From contig JAJDBV010000045.1 of the NCBI GenBank assembly GCA_029261165.1, positions 13,271-77,270 of the forward strand: 64,000 bases of DNA, read 5' to 3'. Positions 20,411 through 41,476 of the stretch are shown in pieces. The number at the start of each line of letters is the position of its first letter. The stretch's first letter is position 1. The stretch comes from Nitrospirota bacterium. Its GTDB lineage: Bacteria; Nitrospirota; Nitrospiria; SBBL01; JAADHI01. The position numbers and the translations under genes were made by a program. The notes under the pieces are model-generated. The model ran no database searches, was not told where the DNA came from, and saw only the letters and a program-made list of their open reading frames with translations.

Positions 20411-20422
20411 TTCAGAGGTTCC

Positions 20423-21889: not shown

Positions 21890-21998
21890 CTCTACTCCCA
21901 AAGTTAGACTCGGCCCCAAGTAAATGCAATATGTATGCCATTGAAAGGCAGGAAGGACGCGGAGTGGAATGCATCCGGGATATGGGCCATGTTCTTCC

Positions 21999-22592
21999 TC
22001 ATGGGGAACCCGAAGAACCGGATCGGGTGTATATCGTGAGGAGTTTCTCGTGCAGGTCGTGGAGGAAGTCAAGGTTTTCTGAAAGCTCACTTCCTTCCAG
22101 GATGTCCTGGGATAAAAACGCCTCCATTTTCTTGGATGTCTTTTTTAATTGATGGAGTAAGTCATTGTTTTCTCTAATTAATTTTATCCGTTCTACCGCA
22201 TTGTTTACAACGACATAGAGCTCGGCCAGTTGGAAGGGTTTTGTTAGATAATCATAGGCCCCTCCTCGGATGGCCTCGATGGCGGAGCGAAGAGACGCAT
22301 AGCCGGTAATGATGATGACATGGATCTCGGGGGAAAGCGCACGGATTTTATTGAGAAGTTCAATACCGTTTAACCCGGGCATCTTGAGGTCGGTGAGAAC
22401 CAGATCGAAAGCGGCTTTGTCAAGAAGTTGACAGGCCTGCTCGCCGGATTTGGCGGTCTTTACCTGATACCCTTTCTGGGAAAGTGCTTCTTCCAAGAGG
22501 TCTCTTGGGCCGCTTTCGTCATCAACCACGAGAATCTTTACACGCGTTTCGGTCGGCAAAGTTTTCTTAGCTCTGGGCAAAGGTTTCCTCAT
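21999..22592 (-). CDS. Single-domain response regulator with a C-terminal coiled-coil tail
   Basis: 'ILVVDDESGPRDLL', 'DLVLTDLKMPGLNG', 'IIITGYASL' and 'DYLTKPF'. No output domain is recognised. Start taken at Met-14 (22592); 22631 is possible. Confidence 0.85.
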   Translation of the reverse strand: MRKPLPRAKKTLPTETRVKILVVDDESGPRDLLEEALSQKGYQVKTAKSGEQACQLLDKAAFDLVLTDLKMPGLNGIELLNKIRALSPEIHVIIITGYASLRSAIEAIRGGAYDYLTKPFQLAELYVVVNNAVERIKLIRENNDLLHQLKKTSKKMEAFLSQDILEGSELSENLDFLHDLHEKLLTIYTRSGSSGSP

Positions 22593-22827
22593 CAGTAGAC
22601 CCTTCCCTGGGGTCTTGGCGTTCCACTTCATTTAACGCGGGGGGCAATTCCGAGAACTTTCTCCGGGACGCTTCCGAAATGGTCACCCGGTCCCTTCTAG
22701 AGACATCTTGGAGTTTTGTTGTTCCCTCCTGGGGTTCCGGACCCGACCCCGTCGTGCTTGCTTTGGACTTTATAAGGTGATGATAGGTCCTCAACACATT
22801 TTGAACTTGATAAATTGTAATACTCAT
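22567..22827 (-). CDS. Small hypothetical protein, first gene of a sigma-28-driven operon (weakly FlgM-like)
   Basis: 86 aa. A strong RBS (AAGGAG) sits 6 nt before the ATG, and a sigma-28-type promoter lies about 40 nt upstream. 'DRVTISEASRRK' is faintly reminiscent of FlgM-type proteins; there is no firm family call. Confidence 0.55.
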   Translation of the reverse strand: MSITIYQVQNVLRTYHHLIKSKASTTGSGPEPQEGTTKLQDVSRRDRVTISEASRRKFSELPPALNEVERQDPREGSTDEETFAQS

Positions 22828-26714: not shown

Positions 26715-28157
26715 TTACTGGAGAAGTGCCAACACGTTCTGTGGCAGGGAGTTGGCCTGAGACAAGATGGCGATACCCGCTTGCTGCAGGATCTGGCCTC
26801 TTGCGAGGGCCGCCGTTTCGGCCGCGAAGTCGGCGTCTTCAATCCGGCTCCTTGATGCCGAGAGGTTTTCCGCCGTCGTCGAGATACTGACGATGGTGGA
26901 GGTGAACCGGTTCTGAAGGGCACCCAGATCGGCACGGGTGCTGTTGATCGTGGTCAGCGCCGCGTCGATAATCGCCAAGGCGTTGGTCGCCCCCGTTGCA
27001 GTCGTCAAATCGACCGACGAAACACCGGCACCTACGGTGGTCGTTGCCGCAGTGACGCCGATCGTTGCCCCGATCAACGCAGACTCCGTGCCACCGATGG
27101 TGATGCCGTCGACTGACGAGGAGGTCAGATTGATCGCTGCCTGGGTGGTGGCCACGACCAGGCCGCTGTCGCCGGCAGTGGTTCCAGAGATTTGGATGTT
27201 CCGGCCATCGGCGGCGGTCAGTGTATAGCCAGCGGCGGAGGCCACTGCGGTCACCCCGGTCTGGCTGCTTATGGAATTGATGGCGGCGGTCATTTCTCCC
27301 GCAGCCACGGAAGCATCGGCGGAGAGGACAACTGCGCCTGCCGTCCCGAGAGCGATCCCGTTAAGCGACATGCCCGCGGTGTCGCCACCGACAGCGGTGG
27401 CAGTGACCGCGAGAGAGGTCGCGTCGATCGTTGCCGTAACGCCGCTGTTTCCAGAGACCGCGTTGATGGCGGCGGCCTTGGAAATGGCACTCGCCGTGTC
27501 CAGGGTTGAAGACACGCCGTCGGCGGTACTCGCACCGATGGCCGTGCCGTTCAGGACCAGGCCTCCGGCCGTCAATGCTGTGGCGGTCGTTGCAGTCAGG
27601 GCGTTCAGGTCTGTCACAGAACTTGATCCCGATCCCACCCCTAAAGCAGCACTTCTTGAGCTTGAGATCGAGGAAATCGTAATCTGGTTGGAGCCTCCGG
27701 AGTTGGCTCCGACCTGGAATGTCTGTGCCGAGAAGGTCCCGTCGAGCAGGACAACGCCATTGAAGTTCGTGTTCTGTGCGACACGGTCGATCTCAGAAAC
27801 CAGGAGCGAAGCCTCTGCATTCAGGGCCGCACGGTCTGTCGTGCTGTTGGTGGCATTGGCCGACTGGACGGACAATTCACGGATACGCTGGAGGTTGTTA
27901 ATCACCTCGTTTAAGGCCCCCTCTGCGGTCTGAGCGAGAGAGACCCCGTCGTTTGCATTCCGGGCCGCCACATTGAGCCCACGGATCTGTGCGCTAAATC
28001 TAGCGACAATCGCGACGCCCGCCGCGTCATCTTTCGCACTGTTCAAGCGCAGACCGGAAGAGAGACGCTGCAATGCCGTTGACAATGCGCTTTGCGACTT
28101 GTTCAAGTTTCTTTGTGCATTTAAAGATGGAATGTTTACATTGACTGTTAATCCCAT
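26715..28157 (-). CDS. fliC: Flagellin
   Basis: N-terminal 'NIPSLNAQRNLNKSQSALSTALQRLSSGLRLNSAKDDAAG' and C-terminal 'AETAALARGQILQQAGIAILSQANSLPQNVLALLQ'. The central domain is rich in Ala, Thr, Ser and Gly. The ATG at 28157 is preceded by AAGGAGGA. Confidence 0.95.
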   Translation of the reverse strand: MGLTVNVNIPSLNAQRNLNKSQSALSTALQRLSSGLRLNSAKDDAAGVAIVARFSAQIRGLNVAARNANDGVSLAQTAEGALNEVINNLQRIRELSVQSANATNSTTDRAALNAEASLLVSEIDRVAQNTNFNGVVLLDGTFSAQTFQVGANSGGSNQITISSISSSRSAALGVGSGSSSVTDLNALTATTATALTAGGLVLNGTAIGASTADGVSSTLDTASAISKAAAINAVSGNSGVTATIDATSLAVTATAVGGDTAGMSLNGIALGTAGAVVLSADASVAAGEMTAAINSISSQTGVTAVASAAGYTLTAADGRNIQISGTTAGDSGLVVATTQAAINLTSSSVDGITIGGTESALIGATIGVTAATTTVGAGVSSVDLTTATGATNALAIIDAALTTINSTRADLGALQNRFTSTIVSISTTAENLSASRSRIEDADFAAETAALARGQILQQAGIAILSQANSLPQNVLALLQ

Positions 28158-28233
28158 GATTCTATCCTCCTTGATTGAAATGACGGGCATCCATGCCCGA
28201 TTGTTTTGAGAGCTTTGTCCTCTCGTGCTTACA
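28158..28233 (-). promoter_or_regulatory. Flagellin 5' leader with three GGA (CsrA-type) sites
   Basis: RNA sense. Hairpin GAGAG-GACAAAG-CUCUC (28224-28208). Hairpin CGGGCA-UGGA-UGCCCG (28199-28184), with GGA in the loop. AAGGAGGA overlaps the SD (28172-28165). Confidence 0.5.
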
Positions 28234-28239
28234 GTAGTC

Positions 28240-28266
28240 TTATCGGATCAGGGATGAGAAACTTGA
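28240..28266 (-). promoter_or_regulatory. Sigma-28-type promoter of flagellin
   Basis: The minus strand reads TCAAGTTT (28266-28259), an 11-nt spacer, then TCCGATAA (28247-28240). Confidence 0.7.
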
Positions 28267-28505: not shown

Positions 28506-28943
28506 CTAAGTCTCTTTGATCACCGGTTCGCGAACGTCGTAGCCGGCATCATAAAGGATGATCTGCTTCCCCTTTCGGGTCTCGGCGTTAATGACAAGGG
28601 GCGCCTGGAGATTTGCGGTCAGCTTGAGTGGATCGTCGTGCGGAATGGTCAGAATCGCCAATATCATCAGGGCACCGGCATCGGGGGTCTCAAGGCCCTG
28701 AAGGTCTTCTTTTCGAAGCGTGGGCCGGTAATCGGACTTAAAGATAAGCGGATCCATGACCGCGAAGGCCAGTTCAGGATCTTCCATGGCCTGGAGCCAG
28801 AAGAAGGGATGTCCTTTATCCTTTTCAACCAGGATATAGCGTTTCTCGATCGGGAATCCCAGTATACCTTCCGGGAAATCAATGAGACGGTCTGCTTCAA
28901 CATCCAGGCGGCCCAATTTCCTGCTTTCGATGACAATGCTCAC
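28506..28943 (-). CDS. fliW: Flagellar assembly factor FliW (CsrA antagonist)
   Basis: 145 aa with 'IDFPEGILGFP', 'FFWLQAMEDPELAFAVMDP' and 'LTANLQAPLVIN'. Confidence 0.9.
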   Translation of the reverse strand: MSIVIESRKLGRLDVEADRLIDFPEGILGFPIEKRYILVEKDKGHPFFWLQAMEDPELAFAVMDPLIFKSDYRPTLRKEDLQGLETPDAGALMILAILTIPHDDPLKLTANLQAPLVINAETRKGKQIILYDAGYDVREPVIKET

Positions 28944-28946
28944 GGT

Positions 28947-29207
28947 TTACTCTCCTTTTCCATGTTCCGGTCGTATGTCCTTCACGATCTCCCTCCCCAG
29001 GATATCCTCGAGCTTCTCGGGATGGAGATCGGCCGCATCCTTGTTCTCACGCATGATCCTGGAGAGAACCTCCTCCCGATGTACGGGCACACCGGGGGGC
29101 GCCTCGATTCCCAGCTTCACTTTCCCGCCTTTCACTTCGATGACCACCACCCTGATTTGATCTCCGAGGGTAATCGCTTCTCCGAGTTTTCGTGTTAGGA
29201 CCAGCAT
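28947..29207 (-). CDS. csrA: Carbon storage regulator CsrA with a C-terminal extension
   Basis: 'MLVLTRKLGEAITLGDQIRVVVIEVKGGKVKLGIEAPPGVPVHREEV' followed by an approximately 35-aa tail. Confidence 0.95.
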   Translation of the reverse strand: MLVLTRKLGEAITLGDQIRVVVIEVKGGKVKLGIEAPPGVPVHREEVLSRIMRENKDAADLHPEKLEDILGREIVKDIRPEHGKGE

Positions 29208-29260
29208 AGGGGTTTCCTTATGTACGCAAATCTCCTTCGACAGATGGGGAGATAAAGACC

Positions 29261-32200
29261 CTAATGTGAGGAGATCTTGACATTTTGATAGCGTTCCTTA
29301 ATCAGTTTAATTCGCCTTTCAATCTCCGGATCGAAAAATCCGGTGTTGTAAATCGCTTCCAGCGTCGGGAGAGATTCTTCTCCCGTAAAATAGGACGAGA
29401 AGGCCCGGGCTTTCTCTCGCTGATCCAAAATGCTCGCAAAAAGCCATTCCGCCAGGCGCTCACCAGGATCGATTGCTGCATATTCATCCGATAAGGGCAG
29501 GAAGGGCTCATTGATTTCAATCTCCCCTCCCTTTTCAAAGAGGGCAAATATCTGGTTGAGCAGATGAACCGCGGACTCACGTTTTCCCAGTTCAATCATG
29601 ACCCGACTTAAAGATAAAAGTCGGGGGAGTGTTGCCTTTGCCTTGGCCAACATTACAAGAATACCGTAGGAGGTTTCCAGGGAAGCGTATCGTACTTCTG
29701 CCGTGCGTCCTGCGTCCTTTGCCCTTGCATATAGATTCAGGGCAATCCAATAGGACTCCCATTCTTCTAAATTTGAAGGAACAGTGATCCAGTGCTCAAT
29801 CAATGCAGATGCATAGGGAAACGACTTGAGATAGCCCTGCCAATCCTTTATGTGTGTCCCGGGGAGATCAGAAGCCGGCGCGGCTTTTCGGACCAAGACG
29901 CCCTGTTTCTCCAGGAGGTCCGCACGGTCTCCTTTACAGAAGAACAGATTGACGGCAAAGACATCCAGATCTTCATCTGTTGTAAAAGGAAGTAACAGGT
30001 TCACCCCTGGAACAAGACGATACGGATGATATTCAAGTTGTTTGAATTCGGATACCAATTGTGTATCAACAATTTGATTATCCCGTCTAATACCAAACAT
30101 AATGAGAGGGGAATTTTGTGAGAAAAAACGCTTTCCACTTTGTAAAAATCCGGTATCTGTCGCATTTGTACTTATGCGGACAAAGTCAATTTCTTTCAAG
30201 CCCTGGAATTTCATTTCCGAGTCAAGAAAGAGTGTCCGGTCTCCTTTTACCATAAGGCACAGGTTATCCAGGGCATTATGCGCCTTACTCTTTTCCATAA
30301 AGCGCGCCTCTTTCTCCGTTTTTGTCGTTGCCCACAACCGGCCTTTCCCGCCTACCTTTTTTGCCAGGGGGATCGCATAAGCGCCCACGCCTGTACAAAT
30401 GTCTAGCAATTGCATGCCCGGCTGAATCAAATTCAGCACGAATCCGTGTTCGGGATCAAACCAGCCTTCCTGTTCCCTTAGAATATAGGTGTTGATTTCC
30501 TCGAGTGTGCCTTCTACCGCAATGTCTACCCCTCCTCGGACCGGAATGTATTGGACTGCCTTCTCCTTTGTCTCGGGAATCACAGGAGATTCAGGGAATT
30601 TCCTTTTCCATCCTTCGATGTAGGCGGCTTCCACCTGTTTTGTTAAGTGTATCGGGTCGCACAGAACGGAACTGCTCAAGCTCTCAGGAATGGTGCGATG
30701 AAGTTCAGCAATTCTGGCCGGATTACTTGCCAGCGCGACTGCTTTCTCGACGTATTCTTCTTCGCTAAAAGCAATCAAGTCCTTAAGGTCAATGCCGATA
30801 TTGCTAAGAACCGAGTAGGAAATGCGATGCGGACAGATGTCACCGACCAGGGTGACCACCGAAACCCCCATCCAAAGGGCATCCATTGTTGTCGTTCCGC
30901 CTGTTAAGGGAAAGGTATCTAACATGATGTCAATGTCGTTGTAATAACGCAGATAACTGCCTTTGGGATGCGTCTTCCAAACGATGTCAATGCGCTGCCC
31001 ATCAATGCCGTGTTTGGAAAACTCCTTGAGGATGTTAATCCTTGTCACTTCCATCTCGCAGTTGGGGTGATTGATGATCATTCTGGAATCAGGGATGCGT
31101 TTCAGAATTTGGCTCCAGACATAGATCAGCTCCGGGCTTAACTTATAGGTACTGTTCAGTGAACCAAAAGTAATAAACCGATTTCGTTCAAAGGGGATGA
31201 CCTTTTCAATGGCCTGTTCGAACAGTCTGGACATGGTACATGATATGTGAGGCAGACGAAGTTGTTGTTCAGTAAAATACTTTGCATTGTCAGGGCCATC
31301 CATATAAGGATCGGTGACAAAATAGTCAACAGCGGGTAAGCCCGAGGTGTAAGGGTAGCCAATATACATCATCTGAACAGGGGCGGGGCGATAACTCAGA
31401 GCCCCGAGTCTGCCGTGTTGGGTGTATCCTGCCAGGTCAAGAAGGAAATGGATGCCATCCGAATGGATCCGTTCCGCCAATTGACGGTCGGACAATTGGC
31501 TCACGTTTACAAAGATATCGGCCGCTTCCCGGTATTGCGCGGTGATGTCATCTTCAAGTTCAAGCTTTGTACTCGAGTAGCAATAAACCTCGAAACGATC
31601 TCTGTCATGGTTGTTAATGAGTCCCCGAACAAAGGTACTCACGCTGTGCCGACGAAAGTCGGGTGAAAGATACCCCACGCGCCAACGGGGCGTGGGGTGC
31701 ATCGCCTCTTCATGGGTTTCATAGGCTGGACGCTCCCGGAGGGCTTCAATGGTCTTTCCCGTCATCTTGTGAACATCTAAAAGCGATGCATGACTGATGC
31801 CCACAGTTGCCAATAGGAGCAGGTTAATATTCTCAAAGGAACTTATCGTGGTGCTGTTTTGAGATATTAACTTCATTATTTCGGGAAGGGACTTTTTTGC
31901 CTCTTCCCAGAGGCAAAAATTCTTGGCGCTCGCATATGCGGTAAAAAGCGCCAGGCCCGGGTGCGGCAAGCTTACGATATGATAAGTGAGTTTCAGCATT
32001 TCTTTCTTATTTCCAGTGAGTTTTTCCCAAATGAGCAGGTTTGAAAGAATATCCGGATTGTCTGGGTAACTGCTCAGTGCCTGTCGATAGTATTTCATAA
32101 CGTCTTGAGGTTTATTTTTTCTGGAAGCAATGACCCCGAGGTTGTTGAGGCTAATGACGTTATTTGGGTCGATGGCCAATACTTTATGAAAAATATTTTC

Positions 32201-32572
32201 TGCCTCATCGTTCTGTGTCCTGGAAAGATAAGTAATTCCCAAGTTGACCAAGCCGTTTACATGGGCAGGATCAATCTCACTCACTCTTTTAAAGAAGCTT
32301 CCCGCCGTAAGGGTGTCTCTGTCGTGTTCCAGACAGACCATCCCGAGGTAATTGAGGGCGTCCGGGTGGTTCGGGTTGAGGGAGAGTATCTGTTTGAACA
32401 ATGTGCGGCTTTTTTCATAGTCCTTTTCCACGAGATAAATGGAACCGAGCAGGATGAGCGTTTCTATTCGATTCGCTTCCCTGGAAAGAATCTTCCGGCA
32501 AAGTTTTTTGGCTTGCTCTAATTGGCCTGCTTTGGCAGATTGGTTTGCCTTCTTTTGCAAGGTTTCGATCAT
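29261..32572 (-). CDS. Multidomain TPR + GT41-type glycosyltransferase + FkbM-type methyltransferase + C-terminal helical-repeat protein (FlmG-like putative flagellin glycosyltransferase)
   Basis: N-terminal TPRs ('LNPNHPDALNYLG', 'IDPAHVNGLVNLG', 'IDPNNVISLNNLG'). SPINDLY/GT41-like core ('RVGYLSPDFRRHSV', 'LDLAGYTQHGR', 'FGSLNSTYKL', 'LDTFPLTGGTTTMDALWMGV'). SAM-MTase segment ('LLDICTGVGAYAIPLAKKVG'). The start at 32572 lies 2 nt after the upstream stop; 32608 is an alternative. Confidence 0.8.
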   Translation of the reverse strand: MIETLQKKANQSAKAGQLEQAKKLCRKILSREANRIETLILLGSIYLVEKDYEKSRTLFKQILSLNPNHPDALNYLGMVCLEHDRDTLTAGSFFKRVSEIDPAHVNGLVNLGITYLSRTQNDEAENIFHKVLAIDPNNVISLNNLGVIASRKNKPQDVMKYYRQALSSYPDNPDILSNLLIWEKLTGNKKEMLKLTYHIVSLPHPGLALFTAYASAKNFCLWEEAKKSLPEIMKLISQNSTTISSFENINLLLLATVGISHASLLDVHKMTGKTIEALRERPAYETHEEAMHPTPRWRVGYLSPDFRRHSVSTFVRGLINNHDRDRFEVYCYSSTKLELEDDITAQYREAADIFVNVSQLSDRQLAERIHSDGIHFLLDLAGYTQHGRLGALSYRPAPVQMMYIGYPYTSGLPAVDYFVTDPYMDGPDNAKYFTEQQLRLPHISCTMSRLFEQAIEKVIPFERNRFITFGSLNSTYKLSPELIYVWSQILKRIPDSRMIINHPNCEMEVTRINILKEFSKHGIDGQRIDIVWKTHPKGSYLRYYNDIDIMLDTFPLTGGTTTMDALWMGVSVVTLVGDICPHRISYSVLSNIGIDLKDLIAFSEEEYVEKAVALASNPARIAELHRTIPESLSSSVLCDPIHLTKQVEAAYIEGWKRKFPESPVIPETKEKAVQYIPVRGGVDIAVEGTLEEINTYILREQEGWFDPEHGFVLNLIQPGMQLLDICTGVGAYAIPLAKKVGGKGRLWATTKTEKEARFMEKSKAHNALDNLCLMVKGDRTLFLDSEMKFQGLKEIDFVRISTNATDTGFLQSGKRFFSQNSPLIMFGIRRDNQIVDTQLVSEFKQLEYHPYRLVPGVNLLLPFTTDEDLDVFAVNLFFCKGDRADLLEKQGVLVRKAAPASDLPGTHIKDWQGYLKSFPYASALIEHWITVPSNLEEWESYWIALNLYARAKDAGRTAEVRYASLETSYGILVMLAKAKATLPRLLSLSRVMIELGKRESAVHLLNQIFALFEKGGEIEINEPFLPLSDEYAAIDPGERLAEWLFASILDQREKARAFSSYFTGEESLPTLEAIYNTGFFDPEIERRIKLIKERYQNVKISSH

Positions 32573-32574
32573 TT

Positions 32575-33339
32575 TCACTGAACCCTCCGTAACCATGCCC
32601 CTGGCCAATAGGTGACCCTTTCGGTGATCTTCCCCTCATTGAAGGGGAAAGAGGGTTCTTCAATCACAAAGTTAGGGTTGGATGCGACAAAGACCTCGGC
32701 GGCGGCCCTTGGATTGTTCCATGACCAGTCTTTATTGCTCCGGGGCGCGCCAACCAGATCTCCCATGATCCCATCTGCTGCGATGATGTAAGAGCCGACC
32801 GAAACCAGGGTGGAATATGCACGGAGCTCAGACAAGACGTGCGCTTTTGTATGATTGGAATCGAGCATCACCAGAACCTTCTCATCCGATTTTACCTTCG
32901 AGGTCACCTTTTCTATGATTTCTAGGTCAATTGAGCTTCCTTCCACTAAGGTAATGTATTCAAATAATTCATGTGCCTCGATAGCTTCACGGTTATGTGG
33001 TCGTATTTCTACATCAATTCCGATCACGCGTCCGCGTCCCATGGCCTTGCACAGGCTTGCATAAAATATAAGGGAACCGCCGTGCGCAACCCCCGTCTCA
33101 ATAATCACGTCAGGTTTTACCTGATAGATGACCTCTTGAATCCTGAACATATCCTCTGGCAACTGAATCATCGGCCGGCCAAGCCAGGAGAAGCCGTAGA
33201 CATATTTATTATCCCAACCACTTCTTAACCAAGCGCCGGAAATAATAGAAAACGCCTCAGGCGTTCCGATGGGATGCGTCTCAGATTCATTCCCGTTTTC
33301 TAGAACAACGATGCCCTTTTCTACGTCAATTTTAATCAT
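32575..33339 (-). CDS. CmcI (cephalosporin hydroxylase)-family class I methyltransferase, sugar O-methyltransferase-like
   Basis: 254 aa with 'FSWLGRPMIQLPEDM', 'PDVIIETGVAHGGSLIFYA' and 'LVMLDSNHTKAHVLSEL'. Confidence 0.75.
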   Translation of the reverse strand: MIKIDVEKGIVVLENGNESETHPIGTPEAFSIISGAWLRSGWDNKYVYGFSWLGRPMIQLPEDMFRIQEVIYQVKPDVIIETGVAHGGSLIFYASLCKAMGRGRVIGIDVEIRPHNREAIEAHELFEYITLVEGSSIDLEIIEKVTSKVKSDEKVLVMLDSNHTKAHVLSELRAYSTLVSVGSYIIAADGIMGDLVGAPRSNKDWSWNNPRAAAEVFVASNPNFVIEEPSFPFNEGKITERVTYWPGAWLRRVQ

Positions 33340-33421
33340 GGTGGCTCAGTGCTCCCGTAATTAAATACTTGGTTATTGTGTCTCATTCTTGCGATGAAAA
33401 TGGATCGCCTAAACCAACCCT

Positions 33422-34582
33422 TTAATGAACGGGCTGTTCACTGAATAAAATACCCTTTAATGCGCTGCAAACATATCTGACTTTTTCTTCGGTTAAATTT
33501 AGACCGGATGGAAGGTTTATCCCATACCGGCTAATTTCATGCCCCACTTTATTACGACGGCGTGCATGTTGGGACTGTTCTAGATCTTTATAGGCCGGAA
33601 TAAAACTCAAAGGACGAAAGAACGGACGGCAGTCAATGCTTTTTTCATTCATTAACCCGATGAAACGATCTTTATCCATGCCGAACTTTGGATCGAGGAT
33701 CATTGTGATCATCCAGTAGGTATTTTTGGTGCTGGTCGCCTCGTTATTCAATGTCACATCTTTGAGGTCGACCAATTCCCTTTGATACCAGGAGAAGATC
33801 TGGCGCCTGCGGGCAAGCAGGTCTTCGATCCGCTCTAATTGTGCAAGTCCCAAGGCCGCCTGCAAACAGCTCATTTTATATTTATAGGCGATCTCTGTGT
33901 TCCGGTACATTTTGTCGCCCGGTTTGCGACCATGGTCACGCAAGAACATGGCACGGTCATATAGATCTTTTCGATCCGTCACCAGCATTCCACCCTCACC
34001 GGTGGTGATGGTTTTTGATCCATGGAAGCTAAAGACGCCCGTGTCTCCAAAGGAACCCGCCTTCTTCCCCTTGTACTCCGACCCCACGGCCTCGGCGGCA
34101 TCTTCGATGACCGCAATTCCGTATTGTTTTGCGAGATTCCGTATGGCGTCCATTTCCGGCATATTGCCGTAGAGGTCGACTGGGATAACGGCTTTCGTCT
34201 TTTTCGTGATACATTCCTCAAAGGATTGAGACGATAAACACCAGGTCCTGGAGTCAATATCGGCAAAGACCGGTGTTGCACCTACATGGGTAATCGGTGC
34301 AGCGGAGGCAATCCATGTTACATCCGGAACAATCACTTCATCGCCCGGGCCGATGCCAAGTGCCAACAGAGAGAGGTGAATTGCCGAAGTACAAGAAGGC
34401 AGGGAGATTGAAAACCGAACACCAATATAATCTGAAAAAGCCTTTTCAAAACGTTCATGGTAGATGTTTGCATTGGCATACCAGGCATTCGAAACGGCAT
34501 CGGTCACATAGTCAATTTCTTTTTCCGTAATCCAGGGACCGGATATTGGAATTCTTTCAAGGGGCTGTCCCAAAACCGTCAT
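33422..34582 (-). CDS. DegT/DnrJ/EryC1-family PLP-dependent sugar aminotransferase
   Basis: 'GPGDEVIVPDVTWIASA', 'VIEDAAEAVGSEYKGKKAGSFGDTGVFSFHGSKTITTGEGGML'. The ATG at 34582 gives an ATGA overlap with the upstream gene; the longer listed ORF is rejected. Confidence 0.85.
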   Translation of the reverse strand: MTVLGQPLERIPISGPWITEKEIDYVTDAVSNAWYANANIYHERFEKAFSDYIGVRFSISLPSCTSAIHLSLLALGIGPGDEVIVPDVTWIASAAPITHVGATPVFADIDSRTWCLSSQSFEECITKKTKAVIPVDLYGNMPEMDAIRNLAKQYGIAVIEDAAEAVGSEYKGKKAGSFGDTGVFSFHGSKTITTGEGGMLVTDRKDLYDRAMFLRDHGRKPGDKMYRNTEIAYKYKMSCLQAALGLAQLERIEDLLARRRQIFSWYQRELVDLKDVTLNNEATSTKNTYWMITMILDPKFGMDKDRFIGLMNEKSIDCRPFFRPLSFIPAYKDLEQSQHARRRNKVGHEISRYGINLPSGLNLTEEKVRYVCSALKGILFSEQPVH

Positions 34583-35340
34583 GATAAATCCTTTATACAA
34601 TTCAAGTATCCATCCGGAGCAGCTGTAATCAGGAGCTTGCTCTCGACTGTCTTGTCGATGACAAACCGGTCGTTGGCCTTCAGGAATTCCCATACGGCAG
34701 TCTTTGGGTTATTCCCTTTCCCCCAGGGACGATCCGGAAAGAAATCCTCCGGCATGTCTTCTATGATTGTGTCAAATACGACGAGGTAACTCCCTTTGGT
34801 GACCAGCGGCGAGTAGCGATTCAGCTCCTTGAGTACATGCGCGTGCGTGTGATTCGAATCCAGAATCAACAACACCGGGTTTTTCCCTCGGGCAAAATCA
34901 CAAACCTTTTTAACCGTATCTTCGTCGGTTGAAGATCCCTCGATCATTTTAATCCGCTTGCAGAGGGGGTGTTTTTCAATTTCACCACGATTATGCTCAC
35001 GAATATCGATATCAATACCTAAAACTTGTCCGTTTCCACCAAGCAGCTCAAGCATCGAAGCATAAAAGACAAGAGATCCTCCGTGGGCAATGCCGGTTTC
35101 TATGATCAAATCCGGCTGAACCTTCCAAATGATCTCCTGCATTCCGAGAACGTCTTGAGGGAGCTGGATAAGCGGCCTTCCCAGCCAAGTGAAATTGTGC
35201 GCATATTTATGCTGTGTAACCTCCTTTACCCAGTGCGTAGAGAGGTCTTGTATCTCTCGGTCGGCCTCCATGCCTTGAATGTGCTCCGATACTTCGCGGA
35301 AATGTTTTTCGATCTCGTTCATTTCAAGAATTCTTTCCAA
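34579..35340 (-). CDS. Second CmcI-family methyltransferase, paralog of 32575-33339
   Basis: 253 aa with 'FTWLGRPLIQLPQDV', 'PDLIIETGIAHGGSLVFYA' and 'LLILDSNHTHAHVLKEL'. Colinear with the other copy. Confidence 0.75.
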   Translation of the reverse strand: MERILEMNEIEKHFREVSEHIQGMEADREIQDLSTHWVKEVTQHKYAHNFTWLGRPLIQLPQDVLGMQEIIWKVQPDLIIETGIAHGGSLVFYASMLELLGGNGQVLGIDIDIREHNRGEIEKHPLCKRIKMIEGSSTDEDTVKKVCDFARGKNPVLLILDSNHTHAHVLKELNRYSPLVTKGSYLVVFDTIIEDMPEDFFPDRPWGKGNNPKTAVWEFLKANDRFVIDKTVESKLLITAAPDGYLNCIKDLS

Positions 35341-36035
35341 TAAACCGTTCCGGAATGGATCATTTTCCCTCCCTCTTTCCCGCGATTGGCGATCAAGTCC
35401 AGGATGGACACATGTGGGTTGAAGGCCCCGTACAGCTGAGGATAGGGTGTTCTTCGGTACTTCATGTATTCAACGTGTATTTTGTTCTTCTCAAAAACTG
35501 CATGGTCCAGGTAGTTTTTTGCGCCATGGCCCGTAATATAAACATCGCCCCCGGCTTTCTTCACGGTGTTGACAACTCTTTGGCTGCTTTCCCCGCCGAC
35601 TCCCATATGAGAAGAATATCGAAACTCCCGTCCCTCGCAAAGGCCAAAGTAACGGCACACTTCTAGGAGACCTGCGACCACGATATCAATCAGTTTCCTT
35701 TCTTCATTCCGGTACACTTTTTCTACGACTGCAATCATCTCGTCCTTATAGGGGGCGCGTCGGTAAGTCTGCGCCAGGAATGTCAGGTGTTGGTTTCTCC
35801 AGTCTTGTTCATCATCCGTAAGAACCTCTAGAATTGCTTGTCCCAACCGTTGCTTGTAGAGCGGGATGGTTAACCATTTGAATCCATCGGAGGTTTTTAT
35901 CTGAACACGGTTAACAAAGCTCCCCTTAGAGAACTGTACATCGTCGTAGTGCACATATGTGTCCGCAAGCCGGATCTGCTCAAACATTCCGACCCATGGG
36001 AAGAACATTGGCTGAGAGATAATGATACGCTTCAC
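35319..36035 (-). CDS. WbqC-family protein (sugar-modification cluster protein of unknown mechanism)
   Basis: 'IISQPMFFPWVGMFEQIRLADTYVHYDDVQFSKGSFVNRVQIKT' is the typical WbqC N-terminus. Confidence 0.75.
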   Translation of the reverse strand: MKRIIISQPMFFPWVGMFEQIRLADTYVHYDDVQFSKGSFVNRVQIKTSDGFKWLTIPLYKQRLGQAILEVLTDDEQDWRNQHLTFLAQTYRRAPYKDEMIAVVEKVYRNEERKLIDIVVAGLLEVCRYFGLCEGREFRYSSHMGVGGESSQRVVNTVKKAGGDVYITGHGAKNYLDHAVFEKNKIHVEYMKYRRTPYPQLYGAFNPHVSILDLIANRGKEGGKMIHSGTVYWKEFLK

Positions 36036-36538
36036 AGGTGTTTTTCCATCATCATCACGTCCAGATACTTCCCCTGCTGTCGGTGGTGGCGGGTATAAAA
36101 TCCGACCCTGGAATACCCTGAGCGTTCGTAAAATGCGATCACATTATTCCGGTGTGCAAGCACTTTCAGAATGACCTTTCGAAGGCTGAGCTCCTTTTGT
36201 ACGTATTCCTCGAACAACCGAAGTGCTTCGCTACCATACCCTCTGCCCTGGAAGTCATCGTCCAGCAGAATGCCTAGCTCGCCCGTTCCATCCATAAAAT
36301 CGATGTTCACCAATTGGATATAGCCGCACGGAAGATCGCCAGACTTCTCTGCAATGATGAAAAATAGGGAACACGCATCACCGAGCCGTCGCTCCAACCA
36401 CTCCGTAACCATTGCAGAGGTGTTGGTCCGGGGACGTGCCATGACCTTGTGCTGCAATTCCGTGTTGTTTCGCATGGAGATCAGAGAACCCTTATCTTTT
36501 TCTTGAGGCAATCTTAGAATGATCTTGCATCCATTCAA
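36032..36538 (-). CDS. GNAT-family N-acetyltransferase
   Basis: 168 aa with 'QGRGYGSEALRLFEEY', the acetyl-CoA-binding Q/RxxGxG/A motif. 4-nt overlap with the next gene. Confidence 0.75.
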   Translation of the reverse strand: MNGCKIILRLPQEKDKGSLISMRNNTELQHKVMARPRTNTSAMVTEWLERRLGDACSLFFIIAEKSGDLPCGYIQLVNIDFMDGTGELGILLDDDFQGRGYGSEALRLFEEYVQKELSLRKVILKVLAHRNNVIAFYERSGYSRVGFYTRHHRQQGKYLDVMMMEKHL

Positions 36539-36555
36539 TACTGGATCTCCCTGTA

Positions 36556-37713
36556 CTACAAGAAAAAATAATGAATCTTACGACCGTTCCATGCCTCGAC
36601 CCTGTCGATGTTGACCTGAGCAATTTTGGGATTCAGGCCCACATAAACCACATCAATATCTGGGTCAAGTTTTTCCGGTCCTAAGATCGGCTTTTCGAAT
36701 AAGACCTTCCCCTTTCGAAAAGAACTTTGATCGATGAAGCTAGTAACTTTTTTGGGGGCAGACAGACAACTCAGGATGAAACTGCCGTAAAAGCCTGATC
36801 CATAAATTGCGACATTTGACCTGTCCGCGTAGGCCTGCTCAAACGTCTTCACCTTGTGGGACAAATCCTGCCAGAAAGCCCCTACCTCTCTCATTCTCTC
36901 TTGTACGTCAGTAACCTGATGCTCCCAGTCCGGGCAGCGTTCTTCTGATATGTCAGCCTTTCGGGCGACAATGACGAAGGCGCCGCGGTGAATTTCTCCG
37001 TCTATCTCCAGCGGGTCAAAACCAACCTTGCTCAGCAAGTACCGGATCGACGTTTCGGTGAAATGATTCACATGATCCACGACGACGTAGTCTGCGATAT
37101 TGGTAAATACATTAGGGACGATGATGTAGCATAAGCCCTCAGGTTTCAGGAATGATCGGATTTTGGTGAGCATGGAATGAGGATCCCCCACGTGCTCCAG
37201 AGAGAAGAAAGAAGTGACTACATCAAACAGGCCTGTCCACTTCTTATTGGGTTCATAGGTTGCCCAATGTTCAGGTTGAGCAAACTTTTCCCAGAACGGG
37301 ACGTACATCTCGCTGACATCAAAAAGGTGCGGCGTAATGTCGGGGCGGGTCTGGATGAGACGCCTGAGCATGCTGCTCTTGGCACAACCATAATCTAATA
37401 CGCGTGCCCCCTCTGGCAGGGAGACTTTGCTGATGAGGGTCTGCATCTGGTGCTCGACCCGATAGATCTTTTTGCTCTCCCTTATTTCGTAAAGCTGGTC
37501 TTCTTCTTCGCTGTCGGTGAGGATTTTGTACGTTGTATCATAATACGCGTCCAGTCCCGTGACCTCAGTGGTTTGAAGATGTCCGCAGCGATCACACAGG
37601 AAGACTTCTGTTTTTCCCTGGTAAATATCGCATAGAGATGTGATGGAAGTGGCGCCATCGGAGCGATACACTGGTGCTTTAAGAGAAGATCTGCAGATAT
37701 TACATGTGGACAT
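36556..37713 (-). CDS. Zn-ribbon + class I SAM methyltransferase + C-terminal domain (C-methyltransferase-like paralog)
   Basis: N-terminal 'CNICRS...CDRCGHLQT' (CxxC...CxxC). SAM motif 'VLDYGCAKSS'. The architecture parallels the 438-aa enzyme at 39172-40488. Confidence 0.65.
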   Translation of the reverse strand: MSTCNICRSSLKAPVYRSDGATSITSLCDIYQGKTEVFLCDRCGHLQTTEVTGLDAYYDTTYKILTDSEEEDQLYEIRESKKIYRVEHQMQTLISKVSLPEGARVLDYGCAKSSMLRRLIQTRPDITPHLFDVSEMYVPFWEKFAQPEHWATYEPNKKWTGLFDVVTSFFSLEHVGDPHSMLTKIRSFLKPEGLCYIIVPNVFTNIADYVVVDHVNHFTETSIRYLLSKVGFDPLEIDGEIHRGAFVIVARKADISEERCPDWEHQVTDVQERMREVGAFWQDLSHKVKTFEQAYADRSNVAIYGSGFYGSFILSCLSAPKKVTSFIDQSSFRKGKVLFEKPILGPEKLDPDIDVVYVGLNPKIAQVNIDRVEAWNGRKIHYFFL

Positions 37714-37730
37714 CGGTTTCCTTTCCTAAG

Positions 37731-38576
37731 TCAGCCCGCCATGAGGTCAGGATGAACATGTTCCAGAGCGACTTCGGAAGAAGATGCGCCACACCAGCCA
37801 ATCTGGATTCCCGTCGGATCGAGAAAATTAAAATACCGAAGCTGCATCGACCACCGCGATCGTATTCCCTGATTGATACCGGAGGCATGTACCACAAGGA
37901 AATCAATAAGAACAAGGTCTCCAGGCTCCGTCAAGGGTGCAACAGGAGGATAGTTCAAGATAATTTCCCTTTCCCTCTCTAATATCAGTCCGTACGCGCC
38001 CGTTTTTTCGGGATTTTTAGGGTCGTTTCGACGAATGCTCAGGAGTCCCTCCTTGTGTGAACCGATGCAGAAGTTGACCGGGCCGAGAGACTCGGTGACT
38101 TGTAGCAATGGACTCCAGAAGGTGACCCCATCGAGACTGCGAAACTGTGCTGGATATTCCTGATGCCACCTTGCCCGATACCTTTCTTCCCCTGGATTGT
38201 CGATACGGATTCCGTATCCGCAGGCTGCGACTCCGGGCATATCCGTCGCCCTGAGTTGGCTCATGAGAGATTCCAGTCGGGAAGACGCAACCAACCTCAA
38301 AAATGCAGGAATCTGCTTGACGGCGTCATACATCTCGCCGCCATACCTGCGGTTCATGGCGATCAACTCTTGGTACCCGGAATCGAATGTTTGGGGGGTG
38401 AAAGCCTGCTGTTCAATCGGCAAGCGATATTTTGTGATGAGAATCTGAATGATTTTGTAGACGGCAAACTGGATTGGCTCGATTTCCTGCTTCAAATCAA
38501 AGAACGATTTGATGAGTAAAACGCCATCCTCATGAAACGTATCAATTTGTTCGGCGGTCAGCATGTTTTTATTCAC
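37731..38576 (-). CDS. Phytanoyl-CoA dioxygenase (PhyH)-family Fe(II)/2-oxoglutarate oxygenase
   Basis: 281 aa. N-terminus 'LTAEQIDTFHEDGVLLIKSFF'. 'WHQEYP' and 'VVHASGIN' fit the His-x-Asp/Glu...His facial triad pattern. Confidence 0.7.
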   Translation of the reverse strand: MNKNMLTAEQIDTFHEDGVLLIKSFFDLKQEIEPIQFAVYKIIQILITKYRLPIEQQAFTPQTFDSGYQELIAMNRRYGGEMYDAVKQIPAFLRLVASSRLESLMSQLRATDMPGVAACGYGIRIDNPGEERYRARWHQEYPAQFRSLDGVTFWSPLLQVTESLGPVNFCIGSHKEGLLSIRRNDPKNPEKTGAYGLILEREREIILNYPPVAPLTEPGDLVLIDFLVVHASGINQGIRSRWSMQLRYFNFLDPTGIQIGWCGASSSEVALEHVHPDLMAG

Positions 38577-39168
38577 TCGTTAACTTATCCTGAAATGTCT
38601 TCGTTTTTTCTGTCTCTTCTTGAGACTTAGAGAATAAACTGTATGACCCATCCTGTTTTGACATGGTGATTTCTGTCAATGGCCATTCAATGGCAAATGT
38701 CGGATCATTCCATCGGATTCCTTTTGCAGATTCCGGACGATAGAATGCTGACATCTGGTAAGAAGCCTCCGCGTTATCGGACAAAGACTGAAAACCGTGA
38801 GCAAAGCCTTCCGGAACATAAAGCATCTTATAGTTTTCAGCATCTAACTCCACTGAAAACCATTGGCAATAAGTAGGAGAATCGGGACGAAGATCAATGA
38901 TGACATCATAAATCGTGCCCTGTATACATCGGACCAGCTTTGCTTCCTCATGAGGCTTCATCTGATAATGCATCCCGCGCAGCGTTCCCCTTTTTTTGTT
39001 ATAGGAGGTATTGCATTGTACGATATTAAATGGGATTCCGTGGGCCTCAAACTCTTCTCGACAGAATGTCCGCGCAAAGGAACCGCGTTCATCTTCTATC
39101 GGATCGATCTCAATGATGTAGGCCCCTTTTAGTTTGGTTTCCTTAAATATCATTGCTTGTATGGGCAC
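38569..39168 (-). CDS. NDP-4-keto-6-deoxyhexose 3,5-epimerase (RfbC/RmlC family)
   Basis: 'DERGSFARTFCREEF', 'QCNTSYNKKRGTLRGMHYQ', 'KLVRCIQGTIYDVIIDLR' and 'LYVPEGFAHGF'. Confidence 0.85.
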   Translation of the reverse strand: MPIQAMIFKETKLKGAYIIEIDPIEDERGSFARTFCREEFEAHGIPFNIVQCNTSYNKKRGTLRGMHYQMKPHEEAKLVRCIQGTIYDVIIDLRPDSPTYCQWFSVELDAENYKMLYVPEGFAHGFQSLSDNAEASYQMSAFYRPESAKGIRWNDPTFAIEWPLTEITMSKQDGSYSLFSKSQEETEKTKTFQDKLTSE

Positions 39169-39171
39169 CTC

Positions 39172-40488
39172 TCACAGAACCGTCACTTCCGGGATCGGCA
39201 CCACAAACGCTCCGCCCCATTCCCGAATGAAGGCCATCTGATTCATGATCTCATCCTTGAGATTCCAGGGCAGGATGAGGAGATAGTCCGGTTTGGTTTC
39301 TCTGATCTTCTCAGGAGGGTAGATCGGGATATGTGTTCCCGGAAGAAAAAGACCCTGTTTGTGCGAACTTCGATCGACTGTATAGTTCAGCATTTCCGAA
39401 TCAATCCCGCAATAGTTTAACAGGGTGTTCCCCTTTGCGGGGGCCCCGTATCCGGAAATGGTCTTTCCTTGTTGTTTAATCATCATGAAGAATGCCAATA
39501 ATCTTTTCCTTGTCTCGCGCACTTTCTCATTAAAAGGGAAGTAGGTCTCTAATTGGTCCAATCCATTTTTTTTCTCTTTCTTTCTCAACCGGGTGATCGT
39601 CTGGCTGATCCTTTTGTTTCGATCATCTTGATGGCATGCATAAATCCGAAGAGATCCCCCGTGTGAACTTAATTCTTCTACGTCAAACAAAACCAAGGCA
39701 TGGTTGGAAAAAATCTTTTCCACGGTGAGAAGTGACAGGTAAGAAAAGTGTTCGTGGTAGATCGTATCGAACTGATTCTCCTCCATTAAGCGTAACAAAT
39801 GGGGAAACTCCATGGTGATCACACCACCGGGTTTGAGTATGATCTTCAGGCCCTGGATAAAATCATTCAGGTCCGGAACATGGGCCAACACATTATTTCC
39901 CACCAGAAGGTCGGCACCGGAGCCATCTTGTCTTATCTCTCTGGCCGCCCTAGACCCAAAGAATGTCACCCGCGTTGGAATGCCCCTAGCCTTTGCGACC
40001 GCTGCCACATTTTCCGCCGGTTCAATGCCCAAGACAGGGACTCTCTTTTTCTGGAAATATTGAAGGAGGTAGCCGTCGTTACTGGCAATCTCAACTACCT
40101 GATGTTTTAGTCCGAGTCCAAACCGCTTTATCATCTCTTCGGTATATCTCTTTGCATGCCTGAGCCAACTGTCGGAGGTGGATGAAAAATAGGCGTAGTC
40201 TTGAAAAATTTCTTCGGGGCTTTGAAATTCCTGTAATTGCACGAGATAGCAACACTCACAGACATAGGCATGTAAAGGGTAGAAGGGTTCCAACTGTGAC
40301 AACTGTTCCCGTTTGATGAAGGCATTCGAGAGCGGCGCCATGCCGAGATCACAGAACGAGTGTTCCAGGGCGGTCCCGCAAAACCTGCATTGACTGGAAT
40401 TTAGACACGTTCCAGATTTTGGCAGCATGTAATCTGGTGCGTTGTTAATTGACGCATGTCTGCTTTTTTTTGAAACATTTTGTACCAT
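39172..40488 (-). CDS. NDP-hexose C-methyltransferase (TylCIII-like: Zn-binding domain + SAM MTase + C-methyltransferase C-terminal domain)
   Basis: 'CRFCGTALEHSFCDLGMAPLSNAF...LHAYVCECCYLVQL', 'VVEIASNDGYLLQYF', 'VLAHVPDLNDF' and 'GYGAPAKGNTLLNYCG'. Confidence 0.8.
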   Translation of the reverse strand: MVQNVSKKSRHASINNAPDYMLPKSGTCLNSSQCRFCGTALEHSFCDLGMAPLSNAFIKREQLSQLEPFYPLHAYVCECCYLVQLQEFQSPEEIFQDYAYFSSTSDSWLRHAKRYTEEMIKRFGLGLKHQVVEIASNDGYLLQYFQKKRVPVLGIEPAENVAAVAKARGIPTRVTFFGSRAAREIRQDGSGADLLVGNNVLAHVPDLNDFIQGLKIILKPGGVITMEFPHLLRLMEENQFDTIYHEHFSYLSLLTVEKIFSNHALVLFDVEELSSHGGSLRIYACHQDDRNKRISQTITRLRKKEKKNGLDQLETYFPFNEKVRETRKRLLAFFMMIKQQGKTISGYGAPAKGNTLLNYCGIDSEMLNYTVDRSSHKQGLFLPGTHIPIYPPEKIRETKPDYLLILPWNLKDEIMNQMAFIREWGGAFVVPIPEVTVL

Positions 40489-40496
40489 TCAACAAC

Positions 40497-41476
40497 CTAC
40501 TCCATGGTAGTCTCAAGAGATATTTTGGGTGACCAGTCTAAGCAGATCTTTGCCTTAGACGAATCGAGCTTGAGGAGAGCGGCTTCATGTGGCTGTTGCG
40601 AAATCTCCATCTCCCAACACACCTTATGGCCCCATGCGTGCATTAAATAGTCAGCGACTCAGGATACCGGTCTGGCGTCTTCCCGTCTTGGTCCGAAGTT
40701 CAATCCCTCCCCAAATTTTGGACCTTCCTCCCACAGTTTTTCAGCAAGGCTCAGGTATCCGTCTAACGGCTCAAGCACGTGCTTCCAATGACGTACCGCT
40801 TCAGGATATCGAAGAATAATCGGTCGATCTTTCATGAGGGCAGTCATCATATCGGGAACAAGCCGGTCCTCTGCCCAGTCTCCTCCACCGACGACATTGC
40901 CCGCCCGGGCCGTTGCCACTTCGACGCCATTGCTGAAGCCATCGGCCTTTGAAAAGGAGTAATTCCGATACGCGCTTGTGATCAATTCGGAACACCCCTT
41001 GATGCTTGAGTAGGGGTCAAGGCCATCGGATCCGTTTCATTATAGCGAATATCCTGATCCCGATTTTCGTAGCATTTGTCGCTTGTGATATTCACGACAA
41101 CCCGGACATTTTTCGCAAGGCGGATCGCCTCCAAGAGGTTCACTGTCCCGATCACATTTGTTGTATATGTTTCAACCGGGTCCTTATGGGAGGATCGGAC
41201 CAGAGACCGTGCGGCCATATGGATCACGATTTCAGGTTGATGCTCTGATAATATCGATCTTAAAAAAGAAAGATCGCGTAGATCTCCCTCTAACGAAACC
41301 ATACCGCCGGAGACGCCAGCCACTTCAAACAAACTTGGACGGGTAGGAGGGGGGAGCGAATAACCGACAACATGTGCCCCTAGATTTTGTATCCAGAGAG
41401 ACAACCAGCTTCCCTCAAATCCGGTATGTCCGGTGATGAAGACCTTTTTATCTCTCCAGAATTCCGGAGTCATCAC
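40497..41476 (-). pseudogene. rfbG: CDP-glucose 4,6-dehydratase (RfbG/DdhB type) disrupted by one frameshift and one in-frame TGA
   Basis: There are three colinear pieces. 41476-40982 has 'KKVFITGHTGFEGSWL...ITSDKCYEN...ETDPM', then the frame is lost near 41019-41027. 40985-40659 has 'DPYSSIKGCSELITSAYRNYSF...' up to 'RPVS' followed by TGA (40658-40656). The same frame continues with 'VADYLMHAWG...PHEAALLKLDSSKAKICLDWSP' to the TAG at 40499-40497. Confidence 0.8.

Follow-up and report, generated by a model that had tools for sequence, protein, structure and literature searches.

Glycosylation of flagellin affects motility, filament assembly and immune recognition. To our knowledge, the way in which flagellin transferases choose their acceptor and donor is understood for few systems, mainly those of Maf and FlmG. 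For FlmG of Caulobacter crescentus, it has previously been established by two-hybrid analysis that the N-terminal tetratricopeptide repeat (TPR) domain binds flagellins, while the C-terminal GT-B domain selects the donor (PMC7591256; bioRxiv 10.1101/2022.03.25.485807). In Burkholderia cenocepacia, deletion of the gene for FlmQ (BCAL0111), a predicted flagellin glycosyltransferase, results in unglycosylated flagellin and reduced motility (PMC4462625). Furthermore, glycosyltransferases of family GT41 (SPINDLY-type, COG3914) have been reported from enterobacterial flagellin islands, nearly all of them with a methyltransferase domain (De Maayer & Cowan 2016, PMC4875605), meaning that the combination of the two in such islands is not new, and standalone FkbM genes have been documented in flagellin glycosylation clusters (PMC7575072). 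The current study concerns a GT41 gene on the minus strand of a 64,000-nucleotide stretch of contig JAJDBV010000045.1 from a Nitrospirota bacterium, the whole of which is referred to here as the window. The gene is embedded in a flagellar gene region (Table 1) and encodes a four-part protein, composed of a TPR array, a SPINDLY-like GT41 domain, a class-I methyltransferase-fold domain and a 223-residue helical domain.

With some reserve, we incline to the view that this protein is a cytoplasmic flagellin O-glycosyltransferase, which probably uses a cytidine diphosphate (CDP)-linked sugar donor and retains the relic of a methyltransferase domain that is probably without catalytic activity. The N-terminal TPR array would serve to recognise flagellin, a role proposed from its counterparts in FlmG, OGT and SPINDLY, while the GT41 domain is predicted to transfer the sugar to Ser/Thr residues in the Ser/Thr-rich centre of this acceptor. 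The donor would most likely be a CDP-activated, C-methylated, aminated/acylated and O-methylated 6-deoxyhexose produced by the genes upstream, as the conserved gene order suggests. The C-terminal module, descended from a protein consisting of an FkbM and a helical domain, would act non-catalytically, for example as a scaffold, as a dimerisation element or as a binder of the substrate or a partner, and O-methylation would probably be performed by the separately encoded methyltransferases of the island, those of the CmcI type among them, and not by the module.

The gene product and its link to flagellin

The minus-strand open reading frame (ORF) extends over positions 29261-32608 when counted from its earliest TTG, while the ATG at 32572 yields a protein of 1,103 residues; an identical protein in a public collection (P0001), derived from an independent gene call, uses this same start. 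The frame contains no internal stop codon and no frameshift, and 35 other proteins of ~1,100 residues align to it over ~99% of its length with 34-60% identity. A frameshift, a mis-assigned start or an assembly artefact was thus ruled out by the continuous frame, the collinear homologues and the matching independent start, and the four-part architecture is no product of such errors because full-length proteins of the same size align from end to end. The single-ORF fusion of about 1,100 residues claimed in the preliminary description is thereby borne out, and the concern of an undetected frameshift or wrong start raised there is dispelled.

Segment-wise BLAST analysis of 120 homologues identified the layout TPR-GT41-Cterm1-Cterm2 in ~45 proteins, with the two C-terminal segments always co-occurring and with the TPR-GT41 unit doubled in forms of ~1,790 residues. 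Mean pairwise identity is highest for the GT41 domain (56%), followed by the methyltransferase-like (40%), helical (38%) and TPR (31%) domains. TPR_1, TPR_2, TPR_8 and related Pfam models match residues 1-200, placing a TPR array, as previously claimed, in front of the catalytic domain. Delimitation of the domains by hidden Markov models (HMMs) and structure prediction, a check proposed in the preliminary description, confirmed the TPR array, the GT41 domain, the methyltransferase fold and the helical domain, while no FkbM model matched.

The GT41 domain matches Pfam PF13844 (Glyco_transf_41) with 187.8 bits against a cut-off of 25 (E=3.4e-55), and its best solved relative is Arabidopsis SPINDLY (SPY; 7y4i/8dtf, E=7e-67), followed by TtOGT (E=5e-56), human OGT (E=6e-48) and XcOGT (E=1e-34), in agreement with the earlier assignment to this family. 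The domain aligns in one contiguous stretch to SPY residues 465-843, while the match to human OGT falls into two stretches, since the intervening domain of OGT has no counterpart in the query. Residues D305, H309, S310, N473, K477 and T560 are the equivalents of SPY D491, H495 (human OGT H558), S496, N661, K665 (human OGT Lys842) and T748, respectively; in a 36-sequence family alignment no variation is seen at D305, H309 and K477 and almost none at T560 (at least 90% conserved), and mutation of K665 abolishes the activity of SPY (PMC9715652). All sequence-level features therefore place the protein in GT41, and its glycosyltransferase half looks fully functional, protein glycosyl transfer itself being a prediction.

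The donor site differs from that of SPY at two contacts, i.e., the gatekeeper Tyr744, which has been proposed to set donor size (PMC9715652), corresponds to Leu556, and the guanine-stacking His728 corresponds to Tyr540. The donors of characterised GT41 enzymes include uridine diphosphate (UDP)-N-acetylglucosamine (GlcNAc), guanosine diphosphate (GDP)-fucose and UDP-glucose (PMC9715652). The donor features of a SPINDLY-type fucosyltransferase were not found, given that the gatekeeper position is occupied by Leu556 and not Tyr, and that the adjoining sugar island encodes a CDP-glucose pathway and no GDP-fucose synthesis. OGT-like transfer from UDP-GlcNAc was also considered and is unlikely, as the island encodes synthesis of a CDP-sugar and a different residue occupies the gatekeeper position.

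The flagellin encoded downstream, which is the presumed acceptor, contains 14% Ser and 16% Thr in its central region. To assess the association with flagellin, local tblastn searches were performed over fetched homologous loci, the retrieval of which relied on full-length alignment and returned mostly generic TPR-GT41 loci. Close homologues (at least 38% identity) in assemblies of Nitrospirota, Gammaproteobacteria and Desulfobacteraceae share their locus with a flagellin gene in nine of nine cases (L001-L003 and L081-L086), while TPR-GT41 loci without the C-terminal module do so in approximately one case in six. Where the upstream flank was available, the genes for P0009, P0035, P0040, P0006 and P0042 were all found to follow the same cytidylyltransferase/dehydratase/C-methyltransferase/epimerase cluster as in the window, and they directly precede flagellin, flaG, fliD, fliS and fliT; at some of these loci csrA-fliW intervenes. 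The flagellin-glycosyltransferase reading is thus well supported by gene order, as is the FlmG-like logic put forward in the preliminary description, with flagellin next to the glycosyltransferase gene at all nine close-homologue loci.

The alternative that the protein is a general GT41 transferase, acting on proteins or polysaccharides and located beside flagellar genes incidentally, draws on the great abundance of TPR-GT41 proteins away from flagellar loci, as the one-in-six figure for the retrieved loci illustrates, and on the presence of distant module-bearing relatives in non-flagellar settings, a cyanobacterium among them. The unbroken flagellin association of the close clade across three lineages, together with the fixed position directly upstream of flagellin or of csrA-fliW-flagellin, renders this explanation very improbable.

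Additional arrangements of GT41 domains were observed among the homologues. In locus L085 (7050-14367), a gene for a 652-residue TPR-GT41 protein directly precedes one for a 1,788-residue protein with two TPR-GT41 units and the C-terminal module, and these three successive GT41 domains ahead of csrA-fliW-flagellin suggest stepwise assembly of a multi-sugar glycan. A further group (P0049-P0090; ~1,683 residues), one member of which is from an uncultured Selenomonas, has GT41 domains in a tandem of three; Pfam TPR matches are essentially lacking, and the C-terminal module is absent.

The C-terminal module and the sugar island

AlphaFold2 (AF2) modelling of residues 661-1103 returned one rigid and confident unit (predicted local distance difference test, pLDDT, 92.6; predicted template modelling score, pTM, 0.91). 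A profile of 34 C-terminal modules matches S-adenosylmethionine (SAM)-dependent methyltransferases (3dh0, E=1e-9), and the Foldseek matches of the alpha/beta half are exclusively class-I SAM methyltransferases (3dh0, E=8e-7); judged from these models, the assignment of a class-I (Rossmann) methyltransferase fold is right. Direct assignment to the FkbM family by HMM was attempted with Pfam and NCBIfam, for the whole protein and for the module alone, and failed: PF05050 (Methyltransf_21) gave no match at E<=1 with the whole protein or at E<=0.01 with the module, TIGR01444 was not matched by the query, and residues 661-1103 returned no Pfam family at E<=0.01, the generic methyltransferase matches being weak (TRM5, E=0.15; MenG, ~1e-3). 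The Pfam FkbM model is matched by five of the 34 modules, all of them distant relatives of the query. Homology was instead established through intermediate sequences. Residues 667-1095 align from end to end with the standalone protein P0134 (478 residues; BLASTP, 35% identity, E=4e-89), which in turn scores 94 bits on TIGR01444, and for this reason descent from the FkbM family is, at the sequence level, certain, while membership as defined by models and motifs was not found.

To evaluate the active site, the motifs of seven canonical fused relatives were compared with those of 47 members of the clade to which the query belongs. In the canonical relatives, the elements G-A-N-F/Y-G, E-P and K-x-D-A-E-G-x-E are invariant. 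In the query, motif I reads DICTGVG versus canonical D[VI]GAN[FY]G, motif II reads ATTKT versus AFEP/AVEP, the A-L-S-x-x-x-G segment is removed by a 26-residue deletion, and motif IV reads FVRISTNATD versus F[LV]K[LIV]DAEGxE. Across the clade, the first motif-I Gly, present in 7/7 canonical relatives, persists in 27/47 sequences; the second position, Asn in 7/7, is Gly in 34/47 and Asp or Glu in 12/47; and the third Gly is kept throughout (47/47). The invariant Glu of motif II and Asp of motif IV survive in one and three of the 47 members, respectively, while the Glu two residues after the latter is found in none of them. In class-I methyltransferases, an acidic residue at the second glycine position of motif I is hard to reconcile with canonical SAM binding.

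The in-line FkbM methyltransferase of the preliminary description therefore holds as regards FkbM homology and class-I fold, and the string quoted for it, LLDICTGVGAYAIPLAKKVG, is indeed present at residues 722-730, but the FkbM models are unmatched, a 26-residue segment is gone and invariant motifs are replaced. The absence of two residues, the first Gly of motif I and the Glu of motif II, was initially taken as proof of inactivity and was dropped as such, since active enzymes of the Trm5/RumA and coclaurine N-methyltransferase types have variants of this kind; the case rests on the clade-wide pattern, the 26-residue deletion and motif IV. On these sequence grounds, the methyltransferase domain is probably inactive. 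A conserved domain with eroded motifs is the usual signature of a domain that has lost catalysis and kept another role, although this falls short of proof. A non-catalytic module is the most likely interpretation because the active site has decayed while the fold, the YxLxEQxxWFxxE motif and the helical domain have remained conserved.

The helical domain, claimed earlier as a C-terminal region of roughly 230 residues, was delimited to residues 881-1103, i.e., 223 residues, and when modelled alone forms a confident ten-helix bundle (AF2 pLDDT 92.0, pTM 0.88). It is covered by no Pfam family, and Foldseek returned no significant structure from the Protein Data Bank (PDB), the best match being the TPR domain of sNASP (E=0.19; template modelling score, TM, 0.41) and the remaining weak matches also being TPR-like solenoids. 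A profile search of 1.84 billion representative proteins identified the domain in 1,223 clusters, 1,021 of them at E<=1e-10. Many of these proteins are 450-500 residues long with the domain at ~245-470, and thus represent the 'FkbM + helical' protein in its standalone form; fusions of ~1,100, 1,200-1,300, 1,790 and 2,400 residues account for others. The wide distribution of the standalone form indicates that the C-terminal 440 residues represent an ancient two-domain unit that was later fused to TPR-GT41.

Standalone members such as P0134 and P0139 (~470-490 residues) align with the whole module, including YxLxEQxxWFxxE and the helical domain, but, unlike the query, they score 94-96 bits on TIGR01444 and have DIGANYG, AFEP and KLDAEGEE intact. 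The positions most conserved in canonical and decayed modules alike are YxLxEQxxWFxxExxF, the last motif-I Gly, SPL, YRLxPG, NLF and several residues of the helical domain. Within the first of these motifs, Y696, E700, E708 and F711 are invariant in both types of module, and the motif may mark the conserved function of the unit. The helical domain has no annotation and always travels with FkbM-type domains in this glycosyltransferase family, and is worth defining. The module is not restricted to flagellar systems, given that locus L005, from a cyanobacterial assembly, encodes a multi-domain protein with TPR-GT41 and FkbM/helical modules and has no flagellin gene nearby. P0122 (2,409 residues) combines TPR-GT41 with two canonical FkbM + helical modules and further domains.

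The genes of the locus, all on the minus strand, are arranged in the order flgF, flgG, flgA, flgH, flgI, flgJ, flgN, flgK and flgL, a 12-gene sugar island ending with the GT41 gene, and then csrA, fliW, flagellin, fliD and fliS, confirming that the GT41 gene is the last of the island and adjoins csrA-fliW. The sole nucleotidyltransferase of the island is a glucose-1-phosphate cytidylyltransferase (TIGR02623, 468 bits versus a cut-off of 300), which makes the CDP-sugar donor suggested in the preliminary description plausible. Other families include a sugar C-methyltransferase, a PhyH-type dioxygenase, Methyltransf_23, a GNAT acetyltransferase, a WbqC-like protein, a DegT aminotransferase and two CmcI-type O-methyltransferases, so that four separate methyltransferase genes are present. 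The island contains no nonulosonate (Pse/Leg) synthase gene, and the pathway starts from CDP-glucose. The gene directly upstream of the GT41 gene in the window is of the CmcI type, as it is in three of five close-homologue loci examined. At L086 (6449-7528, 8346-8990) and L083 (7344-7994), this position is taken by an unannotated protein of ~215 residues, and one locus additionally possesses a standalone FkbM gene; these exchanges indicate that the methylation genes of such islands are interchangeable.

These data bear on the trifunctional enzyme envisaged in the preliminary description, in which the TPR array binds flagellin, the GT41 domain transfers the sugar and the fused FkbM-type domain methylates the sugar or flagellin. 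The class-I fold, the homology to bona fide FkbM proteins, the conservation of the domain (40% mean identity) and the retention in the query of D724, G728 and G730 of motif I and of G-D after strand 3 are all consistent with such an enzyme. Likewise, the flagellin islands of enterobacteria commonly encode fusions of GT41 with a methyltransferase (PMC4875605), and standalone FkbM genes occur in flagellin glycosylation clusters, as seen in a homologue locus and in the literature (PMC7575072). Against this stand the unmatched PF05050 and TIGR01444 models, the deletion, the loss of E-P and K-x-D-x-E-G-x-E, the retention of the domain by those 12 of 47 clade members with an acidic second motif-I position, and the dedicated methyltransferase genes of the island. 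Recognition, transfer and methylation by one polypeptide is accordingly doubtful, as FkbM models and motifs fail and four separate methyltransferases are encoded alongside, and we consider it rather unlikely.

Several observations nevertheless weigh against our preferred reading, i.e., a flagellin glycosyltransferase with a CDP-linked donor and a non-catalytic module. Of the three motif-I glycines, the query retains the second and third (C-T-G-V-G), so SAM binding is possible by sequence. Active methyltransferases of the Trm5/RumA type carry D-x-F-x-G-x-G, while enzymes of the cyclopropane-synthase/coclaurine N-methyltransferase type have Thr, not an acidic residue, at motif II, and both types were found to align to the module profile. 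The purifying selection apparent on the domain would also be expected for an enzyme with a changed substrate. Flagellin was found in two of seven loci of distant module-bearing proteins, one of the flagellin-less loci being cyanobacterial. Finally, the CDP-glucose 4,6-dehydratase gene is broken by one frameshift and two in-frame stop codons, and a second copy was not found within the window; the proposed donor may therefore be beyond the reach of this organism unless the lesions reflect an assembly problem or a substitute dehydratase is available.

The three independent dehydratase lesions, with no second copy in the window, are also what one would expect if the protein were a relic of a decaying island, no longer glycosylating flagellin in this organism despite its intact ORF. 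However, the 1,103-codon frame and the other ten island genes are intact, the GT41 catalytic residues are unchanged, and a dehydratase encoded elsewhere in the genome could complement the defect; moreover, the lesions could be errors or minority variants of a metagenome assembly, an independent Logan contig stopping short of the region. Such a relic is accordingly improbable. A more specific version of the preferred reading, offered tentatively and as a possibility short of probable, is that of a glycosylation enzyme with a retained FkbM-derived pseudo-enzyme and helical domain, which would bind flagellin, the glycan or a flagellar partner, or would control the GT41 domain. If the donor derives from the neighbouring pathway, the protein would in addition represent a GT41 member acting with a branched sugar activated by CDP.

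Transcription and feature coordinates

A spacer of 2 nt separates the start ATG of the GT41 gene from the stop codon of the CmcI-type methyltransferase gene that precedes it, and the two genes are predicted from this spacing to be translationally coupled. The gap of 53 nt to the csrA ATG, as given in the preliminary description, was confirmed. No minus-strand terminator or sigma-70-type promoter was predicted in this gap, and a search with the sigma-28 consensus found no match upstream of csrA, while four matches were obtained in the window as a whole versus 0.53 expected. Furthermore, an overlap of 7 nt exists in locus L085 between csrA and the 3' end of the glycosyltransferase homologue. The absence of such signals from the gap and the L085 overlap make co-transcription of csrA-fliW with the GT41 gene likely, and the earlier suggestion to this effect is plausible, there being a sigma-28-type match at flagellin (TCAAGTTT-N11-TCCGATAA) and none at csrA. 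The flagellin leader (28184-28266) contains a hairpin, cGGGCAtGGAtGCCCg, with GGA in its loop and a GGA-containing Shine-Dalgarno sequence thereafter, which looks like a CsrA-binding arrangement and would fit the adjoining csrA-fliW. Just downstream of fliS, the minus strand at 19826-22631 carries genes for a response regulator, a GGDEF diguanylate cyclase and a PilZ-domain protein, which hints at cyclic di-GMP control beside the filament genes.

Table 1. Features of the locus, with positions in the window and the supporting evidence
Feature	Position	Strand	Evidence or remark
Whole GT41 gene, 1,103 codons plus stop (TAG at 29261-29263)	29261-32572	-	Collinear with 35 other full-length homologues
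TPR array, residues 1-210, ~5-6 repeats; putative flagellin-recognition domain	31943-32572	-	Many Pfam TPR models, E down to 8e-20; binding role proposed from FlmG, OGT and SPY
Linker between TPR array and catalytic domain, residues 211-280	31733-31942	-	Least conserved segment, mean pairwise identity 29%
GT41 (SPINDLY-like GT-B) domain, residues 281-660; key residues D305, H309, S310, N473, K477, T560; gatekeeper position L556	30593-31732	-	PF13844; SPINDLY 7y4i/8dtf
Lys477, equivalent of essential SPY Lys665/human OGT Lys842	31142-31144	-	Alignment; SPY mutagenesis data
FkbM-derived class-I methyltransferase-fold domain, residues 676-880, probably non-catalytic	29933-30547	-	AF2, Foldseek, HMM, motif erosion
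YxLxEQxxWFxxExxF motif, residues 696-711	30440-30487	-	Ahead of methyltransferase core, outside FkbM-model region
Motif I, LLDICTGVG, residues 722-730; D[VI]GAN[FY]G in canonical relatives	30383-30409	-	Alignment
All-helical domain, residues 881-1103	29264-29932	-	TPR-like solenoid
Upstream sugar island, presumed donor pathway	32575-42413	-	Glucose-1-phosphate cytidylyltransferase, 4,6-dehydratase (pseudogene), C-methyltransferase, 3,5-epimerase, PhyH, methyltransferase, GNAT, WbqC, CmcI, DegT, CmcI
CDP-glucose 4,6-dehydratase pseudogene	40413-41476	-	Frameshift near 41020; TGA at 40659-40661 and TAG at 40497-40499, both at conserved Trp positions
Gap between GT41 gene and csrA, 53 nt	29208-29260	-	Shine-Dalgarno-like AAGGA
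csrA (28947-29207) and fliW (28506-28943)	28506-29207	-	Pfam CsrA E=7e-23; FliW E=3e-39
Sigma-28-type promoter of flagellin	28240-28266	-	Two mismatches
Hairpin in flagellin leader	28184-28199	-	
Flagellin, 480 residues from ATG 28157, presumed acceptor	26715-28157	-	Central region 30% Ser+Thr
Second sigma-28 match	19757-19783		Precedes chemoreceptor gene 17595-19610

Comparison with described glycosylation systems

In the searchable literature, no experimental study of a flagellin GT41 enzyme was found, nor any account of the helical domain or of the decay of the methyltransferase site. The GT41-methyltransferase fusions of De Maayer and Cowan (PMC4875605) were identified by comparative genomics only; their fused domain was assigned to the generic cd02440, and FkbM was treated as a matter of separate genes. 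Motif decay and the helical domain are described here and are absent from that account. For annotation, the present case calls for caution, in that a 'methyltransferase' call in a multi-domain glycosyltransferase does not equate to activity, as fold and homology may survive where the active-site motifs do not.

The retrieved TPR-GT41 loci of Burkholderia, the genus of FlmQ, and of Paraburkholderia encode distant relatives with ~29% identity over residues 16-656 and without the C-terminal module. Arabidopsis SPINDLY shares with the protein described here a TPR array in front, the lack of an OGT-type intervening domain and the equivalents of the catalytic residues. SPINDLY transfers fucose, a 6-deoxyhexose, and the island described here also builds a 6-deoxyhexose derivative, but in CDP-activated form; furthermore, SPINDLY is eukaryotic and nucleocytoplasmic, uses GDP-fucose and is without the C-terminal module, whereas the donor in the present system is likely CDP-linked. 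Should this be the case, the donor range of GT41 would be widened. The family constitutes a widespread and environmentally distributed class of putative flagellin glycosyltransferases built on the OGT/SPINDLY scaffold.

FlmG resembles the present protein in its soluble two-part design of TPR and GT-B domains and in its genetic link to flagellin, which is seen here in nine of nine loci. It differs in its length of 596 residues, in having no methyltransferase-like or helical domain and in transferring pseudaminic or legionaminic acid, in contrast to the CDP-hexose pathway encoded beside the GT41 gene. No assignment of the GT-B domain to GT41 is made in the papers on FlmG, and the likeness is one of domain plan and synteny. 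Within these bounds, the division of labour described for FlmG, with the TPR domain binding flagellin and the glycosyltransferase domain selecting the donor, would appear by analogy to be the best model for this protein.

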